Positions 22,632 through 23,086 of a stretch of 64,000 nt of DNA are shown here, in pieces (position 1 is the stretch's first letter; each line of letters begins with the position of its first letter). The DNA comes from Bradymonadia bacterium (GTDB taxonomy: Bacteria; Myxococcota_A; Bradymonadia; UBA7976; UBA1532). The stretch lies in assembly GCA_046290225.1 (NCBI GenBank), contig JBKAGE010000034.1, forward strand, positions 352,001 through 416,000. The letters are read 5' to 3'. Below the pieces are notes generated by a model. That model was not told the DNA's origin, did no database searches, and saw only the letters and a list, made by a program, of their open reading frames with translations. Made by a program: the position numbers and the translations under genes.

Positions 22632-22747
22632 CGAGGCGTAGCTCAGCCAGGGAGAGCGCCCGCTGTTGAAAAATGGTGTCCGACTGTCTCGACGTCTTAC
22701 TTCGCTTTGGGGGCGGGAGGTCGCAGGTTCGAATCCTGCCGTCTCGC
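22632..22747 (+). tRNA. tRNA-Pro(TGG)-like RNA with a 42-nt insertion (22661-22702) in the anticodon stem; C discriminator; may be a tRNA-mimic ncRNA
   Basis: Acceptor CGAGGCG/CGTCTCG, D-arm GCTC/GAGC and T-arm GCAGG-TTCGAAT-CCTGC. Removing the insert gives CCCGC-TTTGGGG-GCGGG. Enclosed by a 28-bp stem (22599-22626/22752-22779). Confidence 0.75.
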
Positions 22748-22820
22748 AGTGTGCGCTGAGCAGGTGTCTCTCTGTTGGCCATTGGAGAAACCGGAAGAAG
22801 TTGCTGTTCGGCCCATGCAT

Positions 22821-22929
22821 CGAGGTGTAGCTCAGTCTGGTAGAGCGCTTGATGATGATGTCCGACTGCCTTGATGTCTTACTTCGCTTTGGGTGCGAGA
22901 GGTCGCAGGTTCGAATCCTGCCACCTCGA
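22821..22929 (+). tRNA. tRNA-Pro(TGG)-like RNA with a 35-nt insertion (22850-22884) in the anticodon stem
   Basis: Acceptor CGAGGTG/CACCTCG+A with intact D and T arms. Removing the insert gives CTCGC-TTTGGGT-GCGAG. Flanks 22804-22820/22929-22945 extend the acceptor helix. Confidence 0.75.
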
Positions 22930-22979
22930 TGGATGCGCCGAGCAGGATCTTCCTTCGGGTCGTGGGGCTGCGCCTCTTC

Positions 22980-23086
22980 GGGGGTGTAGCTCAGTGGTGA
23001 GAGCGCTATTACAGATTTCCGACTGTCTGGATGTCTTACTTCGACTGTCAATCGAGAGGTCGTGGGTTCGAATCCCACCGCCCCCG
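22980..23086 (+). tRNA. tRNA-Asp(GTC)-like RNA with a 34-nt insertion (23008-23041) in the anticodon stem
   Basis: Acceptor GGGGGTG/CGCCCCC+G. Removing the insert gives CTCGA-CTGTCAA-TCGAG. T-arm GTGGG-TTCGAAT-CCCAC. Enclosed by a perfect 15-bp stem (22959-22973/23091-23105). Confidence 0.75.

Follow-up and report, generated by a model that had tools for sequence, protein, structure and literature searches.

Three neighbouring tRNA-like genes, each interrupted within the anticodon stem by a short insert, raise the question of whether the inserts are introns that are removed from the RNA or arms that the RNA keeps. The genes lie in a 64,000-nucleotide stretch of DNA from a Bradymonadia bacterium (the window, meaning this whole stretch). 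We favour, with a probability of about 0.7, the reading that they encode native-order tRNA mimics of the Y RNA kind, partners of the Ro60 protein, in which the inserted module is retained. As far as sequence can tell, the three genes are a genuine observation, probably do not carry ordinary introns and are most likely a variant of bacterial Y RNA.

Results

Three tRNA-like genes interrupted at one common junction

The earlier note on this DNA had described three tRNA genes, two of Pro and one of Asp identity, interrupted at position 28/29. The units and their parts are as follows.

22599..22779, plus strand: unit 1 with its flanking inverted repeat (arms 22599-22638 and 22740-22779), which lengthens the acceptor stem
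22632..22747, plus strand: unit 1, tRNA-Pro(UGG)-like body in native order, with C73; anticodon loop 22706-22712
22661..22702, plus strand: insert 1, consisting of a spacer, the module hairpin (22674-22697) and a UACUU linker (22698-22702)
22791..22958, plus strand: unit 2 with its flanking inverted repeat (arms 22791-22827 and 22922-22958)
22821..22929, plus strand: unit 2, tRNA-Pro(UGG)-like body, C1:G72 and A73 kept; anticodon loop 22888-22894
22850..22884, plus strand: insert 2, with module hairpin (22856-22879) and linker (22880-22884)
22959..23105, plus strand: unit 3 with its flanking inverted repeat (arms 22959-22973 and 23091-23105)
22980..23086, plus strand: unit 3, tRNA-Asp(GUC)-like body, G73 kept; anticodon loop 23045-23051
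23008..23041, plus strand: insert 3, with module hairpin (23013-23036) and linker (23037-23041)

Scripted removal of 22661-22702, 22850-22884 and 23008-23041 left 75-nt genes, which ARAGORN called as tRNA-Pro(tgg), tRNA-Pro(tgg) and tRNA-Asp(gtc), with anticodon stems CCCGC/GCGGG, CTCGC/GCGAG and CTCGA/TCGAG and 7-nt loops, exactly the cloverleaves that the earlier note had proposed. The scores were 124.6, 124.8 and 123.5, versus a median of 119.3 for the 96 uninterrupted calls of the genome. The Rfam tRNA model matches all three genes at 47-53 bits, with the anticodon arm gapped and with D and T arms that carry the invariant bases. In an exhaustive deletion scan, copy 1 gave five Watson-Crick pairs for junctions 28/29 to 32/33, and copies 2 and 3 gave them at 27/28 or 28/29; 28/29 is therefore the sole junction common to all three, which confirms the note on this point. 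Its reading of a C discriminator in copy 1 was also correct, copies 2 and 3 retaining A73 and G73, and it had rightly seen no archaeal bulge-helix-bulge (BHB): the would-be central helix pairs at one of four positions at 28/29 in all three genes. The inverted repeats around each unit extend the acceptor stem (z -7.95 for 22590-23130).

A promoter, five copies of the module and a Ro60 gene

The motif TCC[GA]ACTG-n-TTACTTC occurs five times in the 8.58 Mb genome, always between 22679 and 23910. By chance, 1.9 copies of its core, GTCTTACTTCG, would be expected in the genome as a whole and 0.00014 in 1.3 kb, the length of the stretch that holds all five exact copies. Two of the five (23492 and 23879) lie outside any tRNA. 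The earlier note had seen the inserts but missed these two copies, the flanking stems, the promoter and the Ro60 gene. The further features of the locus are listed below.

22570..22584, plus strand: sigma54-type promoter, GG-N10-GC, TGGCAC...TGC (TGGCAC-N7-GC)
23151..23225, plus strand: uninterrupted tRNA-Pro(UGG), 65 bases after unit 3, with an anticodon loop identical to that of unit 1
23455..23575, plus strand: unit 4, a long hairpin lacking D and T arms; module 23492-23520
23584..23658, plus strand: uninterrupted tRNA-Pro(CGG)
23814..23939, plus strand: unit 5, with a long terminal stem; module 23879-23907 in a branched loop
23997..25766, plus strand: Ro60/Rsr gene (TROVE and vWA), 589 aa, of a divergent subfamily

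We take TGGCAC-N7-GC at 22570-22584 to fit the sigma54 promoter consensus, which would place the transcript start near 22596. Of 13 loci compared, made up of the window and 12 homologues but not L001, which was too short, 11 have this pattern in the 120 nt that precede their first RNA; the background is 0.01 per 120 nt. Unit 4 also has a 7-nt loop like that of Phe(GAA) (23524-23530), closed by a 2-bp stem, and unit 5 has neither tRNA arms nor an anticodon hairpin.

Alignment of 25 copies showed that the module consists of an 8-bp hairpin, frequently with a central mismatch, and a UUAC linker. Of the cells of this hairpin 84% are paired, compared with 25-62% in slid controls, and seven of its eight pairs show two-sided changes; none of 500 shuffles came as high. 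The hairpin was drawn from the same 25 sequences, which favours that structure in the test. The start of the loop (CGAC/CAAC) and the UUAC-UUCG tail are near-invariant. All five window copies have TTAC, of the YUAY type that stands before the V or anticodon hairpin; some homologues have TTCC or a similar sequence. A search of viral contigs with the module pattern gave no matches, and one of metagenome contigs gave three stretches, all identical in sequence to members of the existing set of loci.

Some further observations concern the array. An 85-nt REP-like palindromic repeat is present three times (23238-23322, 23336-23420 and 23671-23755), with 18 matches in the genome; the third copy is missing from a related contig. 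At 23526-23527 one low-depth contig (run X1, depth 4) has TC for GA, which turns the unit 4 triplet from GAA to TCA and may be an error; no change in the module is listed for this contig. The spacer of insert 1 (22667-22686) is complementary to 23217-23236 and 23656-23669, at the 3′ end and trailer of the two uninterrupted tRNA-Pro genes. The module of unit 5 (23884-23903) is 75% complementary to 23970-23989, just before the Ro60 ribosome-binding site; this may let Ro60 control its own translation, or may be chance.

The Ro60 gene is on the same strand as the array, 0.9 kb downstream of the three tRNA-like genes. Its match to Pfam TROVE is weak; among the matches of a profile built from 67 homologues are Ro60 chains of phage and vertebrates. 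With an AlphaFold model of the protein (pLDDT 89), the Foldseek matches at E<=0.001, 13 in all with 12 listed, are all Ro60/Rsr, matched over the length of the window's protein, with TMq 0.46-0.65. Basic residues appear in the profile at the positions of K141/K142 of phage Ro60 (PMC12135203), with the numbering offset judged by eye.

The earlier note had named three companions to look for. Uninterrupted tRNA-Asp(GTC) is indeed encoded by three genes elsewhere in the genome, and uninterrupted tRNA-Pro(TGG) genes also number three. RtcB has three matches, all on contigs other than the window's, but a tRNA intron endonuclease was not found: tRNA_int_endo (PF01974, EndA type) has no match in this 99% complete genome, the control search being positive in four archaea. 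The region G000:C38:251359-254219, linked to neither RtcB nor Ro60, encodes RtcR and next to it a divergent gene, the start of which we take to read like RtcA. One of the RtcB matches (on contig C8) falls within an open frame of 1083 aa and may be part of a fusion. A second Ro60 operon of this genome (G000:C35:239912-242413) also has a sigma54-type promoter. Its two interrupted tRNA-like genes resemble Thr(GGT) and Gly(TCC), and a further module stands alone together with an Asn anticodon arm; the module there is of a different type, GCAGTGAG...GTTACTTC.

The module follows Ro60 across genomes

All 13 loci with close Ro60 relatives, which come from Myxococcota, Bradymonadales and unclassified MAGs, have the module upstream, in tRNA bodies in 12 of them and in a 23S gene in the other. 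The presence of the module in different tRNA bodies bears out the earlier suggestion that it was acquired or copied more than once. Because several loci (for example L003, L008 and L010) have a single unit, native order is the conserved form. The locus counts overstate independence, since the homologues are partly close kin. Among 401 genomes of the phylum, where the matches overlap the 13 loci, the strict motif was found in six and the Ro60 subtype in seven; both are present, and adjacent, in five. In the sixth genome with the strict motif, the match lies inside a coding sequence. A Pfam scan of 43 neighbouring open reading frames from 10 loci detected no conserved partner besides Ro60, and no conserved nuclease or ligase. 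When a profile was run, with no positive control, on 251 genomes from a different family of the phylum, it found nothing. Among 29 loci around other Ro60 genes of the phylum, 16 have native-order interrupted units with longer modules and two have Rfam-grade YrlA.

The earlier note had also considered decaying pseudogenes, here understood as tRNA genes struck by a small repeat or mobile element. C73 in copy 1, a homologous Ro60 gene in pieces and the REP-like repeats within the array agree with decay. We nevertheless regard this explanation as very improbable: it fails because the homologues are conserved and the module hairpin covaries, and the restriction of the module to Ro60 loci, the compensatory changes, the conserved promoter and the high tRNA scores after deletion all speak against it.

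Other features of Ro60 loci were noted in passing. At L013:4818-6684 the Ro60 gene is in pieces and the promoter spacing is one base short, as in a decaying copy of the operon. An AlkZ-like DNA glycosylase gene lies between the RNA array and Ro60 at L004:3587-4795; the inserts of two units at this locus contain an additional hairpin, and the triplet of one is TTA. On an AT-rich viral contig (L105:4524-4635), with a Ro60 that is 33% identical, a tRNA-like gene has a similar hairpin and TTACTTC, as judged by eye and with no Rfam match. Ro60 genes are found inside long tRNA arrays at L053, L054, L057, L068, L077 and L149, with a haloarchaeal plasmid among the carriers.

A copy of the module in helix 69 of a 23S rRNA gene

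The exceptional locus, L012, a single MAG contig, has an orphan, degenerate 3.2-kb 23S copy immediately upstream of Ro60 (L012:1741-4935), with a 41-nt module (3907-3947) in helix 69. Deletion of the module restores the helix. The opposite strand is altered to pair with the module's own T; the pairing GGCCG/CGGTC is kept in 24/24 other sequences listed. The copy differs at 63 of 404 otherwise invariant positions, versus 0.2-6% in 20 others, and the altered regions include the peptidyl-transferase centre, the P-loop, the A2451 region, the A-loop and the sarcin-ricin loop; excision therefore could not give a working rRNA. The 23S copy is a possible rRNA-sized decoy. We detected no second module-bearing helix 69 among matches in 32 of 61 genomes, and nine viral matches to the helix-69 pattern all lacked the module and any Rfam match. 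A 23S search found none assembled in the genome of the window and no second 23S in that of L012.

Intron or retained arm

The inserts, of 34-42 nt, matched no intron family in Rfam scans and have no group I or II catalytic core of hundreds of nucleotides. They could instead be conditional mini-introns: a non-EndA nuclease, guided or gated by Ro60, would cut at the three-way junction and RtcB would join the ends, giving spare tRNAs after tRNA damage. Indeed, in 17 of 20 tRNA-type units some deletion yields five Watson-Crick pairs, a 7-nt loop and U33, and the best deletions of all 20 score 108-129 in ARAGORN. The restored loops equal genuine tRNA loops of the window's genome (e.g. CTGTCAA, CTACGGA and TTTAGGT). 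The three RtcB genes and the restoration of 23S helix 69 would also fit, and processing of YrlA, a bacterial Y RNA, into tRNA-like products has been raised as a possibility (10.1101/312249).

Against excision, no single splice register serves the set. The junction, far from being fixed at 28/29, varies among homologues (28/29, 29/30 and 31/32), and the 3′ boundary lies at -1/0 from the module's CG in some units and only at +1 in others, so that the best single 3′ register serves 9/20 units with Watson-Crick pairs and 11/20 with G-U. Eleven of the 17 restorable units have acceptor arms that misfit their own anticodon; about six, namely units 2 and 3, L001, L005a, L006b and L004b, have fitting acceptor features and count in favour of mini-introns. 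This scoring (first pairs, N73 and variable arm, compared with the tRNAs of the window's genome) was done by hand and across species. L002 and L003 share nearly one C1:G72/A73 body with anticodons GTC and ACG, respectively, and in L007 a Leu loop sits on a G73 body of the short-arm kind. Furthermore, the mini-intron reading has to contend with the missing BHB and endonuclease family, with the presence of uninterrupted Pro(TGG) and Asp(GTC) genes, with the lack of a conserved nuclease or ligase among the 43 neighbouring frames, and with modules in RNAs devoid of tRNA arms and in a 23S copy that would stay dead. We consider it unlikely. Of the two options of the earlier note, the retained insert, whose TTCG would contribute to the anticodon stem of a five-arm RNA with a non-translational role, is the better supported, and the mini-intron is weakened.

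In a variant of excision that we find doubtful, the module would be a portable Ro60-binding handle grafted 2-3 bp upstream of loops targeted by ribotoxins, removed by a non-EndA activity under RNA damage and the ends sealed by RtcB. If true, these would be the first protein-spliced tRNA mini-introns in bacteria, with spare tRNAs kept in a Ro60-locked state, and the targets would be many tRNA anticodon loops and 23S helix 69.

Energy minimisation of bodies 1 and 2 by themselves did not arrive at the five-arm fold, and a hand-drawn version of this fold for unit 3 has -27.2 versus a minimum of -38.4 kcal/mol, 11 kcal/mol above it; the five-arm fold would therefore require protein or tertiary contacts. 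No joint skipping an insert was found in three DNA runs with contigs of patchy coverage, a search that has no bearing on splicing.

Relation to YrlA and other known systems

YrlA, which is bound by Rsr, is defined in PMC4201824 by the motif GNCGAAN0-1G, a YUAY that opens the V loop, a T arm, a closed acceptor stem and a D arm; 10.1101/312249 describes it as permuted and lacking an anticodon loop. Like YrlA (RF02553), the window RNAs come as several per locus within 4 kb of a Ro60 ortholog on the same strand, have D and T arms and a module at the anticodon stem, and place a YUAY linker before a small hairpin. Unlike YrlA, in which the T arm precedes the D arm and the acceptor loop is closed, they are in native order with free acceptor ends. 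Their module is an internal capped hairpin, whereas that of YrlA is built from the 5′ and 3′ ends, and they keep the complete anticodon arm that YrlA, as described, does not have. The module carries CC[GA]ACY, with CCGACTG in place of the YrlA motif. The Rfam YrlA model scores 16.8 bits (E 3.1) on the array, versus a gathering score of 69 bits. In an alignment test, window-type modules showed no resemblance to those of YrlA (mean z 0.0, 0/10 above 2), and the longer modules resembled re-joined YrlA ends weakly (mean z 1.26, 16/16 positive, 1/16 above 2; -0.76 in the wrong order). By these comparisons the window RNAs have a predicted YrlA-like layout, yet are outside YrlA by order, motif and score. 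A reading of the array as YrlA permuted between units was ruled out, given that the flanking stems close each unit and that single-unit homologues exist.

Permuted YrlA-like units lie upstream of Ro60 in Caulobacter phage CcrColossus (L145), Xanthomonas phage 10KY502B (L152) and a Deinococcus taeanensis plasmid (L151), in the order linker, CG, anticodon arm, T arm, acceptor loop and D arm; the same junction is therefore present in both orders. When these units were closed, three of five script-testable ones gave CCCGC/GCGGG and CTCGA/TCGAG stems with 7-nt loops, two having stems identical to those of units 1 and 3; of the remaining two, one gave four pairs and the other one pair. Two permuted units are sub-threshold YrlA matches (E 2e-7 and 1e-5), and the CcrColossus units neighbour such a match. 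Regular expressions detected no linker-plus-arm unit upstream in L153, L155, L156, L148 and L150, and the 12 loci from cultured phages or plasmids yielded no unit in native order. Upstream of its Ro60 gene, CcrColossus (L145:1100-2456) encodes about six permuted tRNA-like RNAs that bear the module, only one of them annotated, as tRNA-Gln. In Bacillus phage G (L154:1750-2330), five repeats of the type G(A/T)GCGG...GTTACTTC, without tRNA bodies, precede Ro60.

The long terminal stems and the polycistronic arrangement with real tRNA genes recall Yrn1/Yrn2 of Deinococcus and metazoan Y RNAs. The bulged helix of Yrn1 and metazoan Y RNAs contains GGUCCGA and is formed by the 5′ and 3′ ends (PMC4201824). 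Part of the module copies contain this sequence or its hexamer, GUCCGA in units 1 and 2 and GGUCCGA in L006, L007 and L012. Here the hexamer straddles the stem and loop of an internal hairpin, and the C that is bulged in metazoan Y RNAs is paired in 22/25 rows, with covariation supporting a C-G pair; Yrn1 differs further in having the module at the acceptor end. In another explanation, the module is retained and the anticodon arm is a structural relic or a docking shape, and the RNAs are ordinary tethers between Ro60 and PNPase or a different effector that binds tRNA, as known from the Deinococcus RYPER. Its structure is that of the reading we favour, with another job for the RNAs. Tethering is an established role of Y RNAs (PMC4201824 and PMC12135203), and unit 5, with its long terminal stem and no anticodon hairpin, would suit it. 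We hold it improbable: it leaves unexplained why U33, purine 37, the 5-bp geometry and real loops are kept across many anticodons, why acceptor identity drifts beside the kept loops, and why the module sits in helix 69.

Two other known systems are relevant. Archaeal non-canonical tRNA introns, removed by EndA and RtcB at a BHB, include short inserts at e.g. 29/30 and 30/31 (PMC4090602). They too place similar inserts in unrelated tRNA bodies, and their deletion restores the tRNA (3/3 here); the host of the window, however, is bacterial and lacks BHB and endonuclease, and its internal motif is tied to Ro60. With the rsr-yrlBA-rtcBA RNA-repair operon, regulated by RtcR and sigma54 (PMC7790460), the locus shares a sigma54-type promoter, Ro60 with small RNAs, and RtcR and RtcB in the genome, but here rtcR, rtcA and rtcB are on other contigs and regulation by RtcR would be in trans.

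Discussion

Returning to native-order mimics that retain the module, we propose the following mechanism. The sigma54 promoter, activated in trans by RtcR as for rsr-yrlBA-rtcBA (PMC7790460), would drive one transcript with five module-bearing RNAs, two tRNA-Pro genes and Ro60, and processing of the long stems would release the units. Each tRNA-like unit would fold as a native-order tRNA in which a side arm that stays in the RNA splits the anticodon stem after position 28. This arm would comprise the 8-bp hairpin, with CGAC in its loop, and the UUAC linker as a single strand. The final CG of the module would complete the distal stem, in a layout that the comparison of units shows, and an authentic 7-nt anticodon loop would therefore be shown at the normal distance from the elbow. 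Known Y RNAs suggest that Ro60 would bind the side arm; phage Ro60 is shown bound to a CGAA-bearing stem in PMC12135203. The window RNAs would then be un-permuted counterparts of YrlA, the 'V arm' of which would be the anticodon arm.

What such mimics would do is a guess, which we offer tentatively and at somewhat short of even odds: in an RtcR/sigma54 response to tRNA damage, the Ro60-bound RNAs, rather than acting as translating tRNAs, could serve as bait for anticodon nucleases or anticodon-reading proteins. Cleavage in the loop might leave a 2′,3′-cyclic phosphate about 8 nt from the bound Ro60, and the cleaved mimic could conceivably soak up the nuclease or feed RtcR/RtcB. YrlA has been suggested to be a competitive inhibitor of an anticodon nuclease (PMC7790460). 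That source leaves the roles of bacterial Ro60 and tRNA-like RNAs unaddressed, and 10.1101/312249 gives the effector as unknown. The literature searched yielded no account of Ro60 RNAs that are in native order and bear an anticodon, nor of a module hosted by an rRNA; Burroughs and Aravind 2016 and Sim et al. 2020 may contain one.

Genes of this kind escape ARAGORN defaults and the Rfam YrlA model and would be filed as pseudo-tRNAs or introns. For the origin of YrlA they offer an alternative to the published dimeric-tRNA model: the module would first have entered one tRNA, permutation would have followed, and the 'V arm' would correspond to the anticodon arm. The module in helix 69 of a dead 23S copy suggests, from one case, that the system also mimics rRNA targets. 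A complete and exchangeable anticodon arm in native order would direct the question of what these RNAs do to anticodon-reading proteins, loop by loop.
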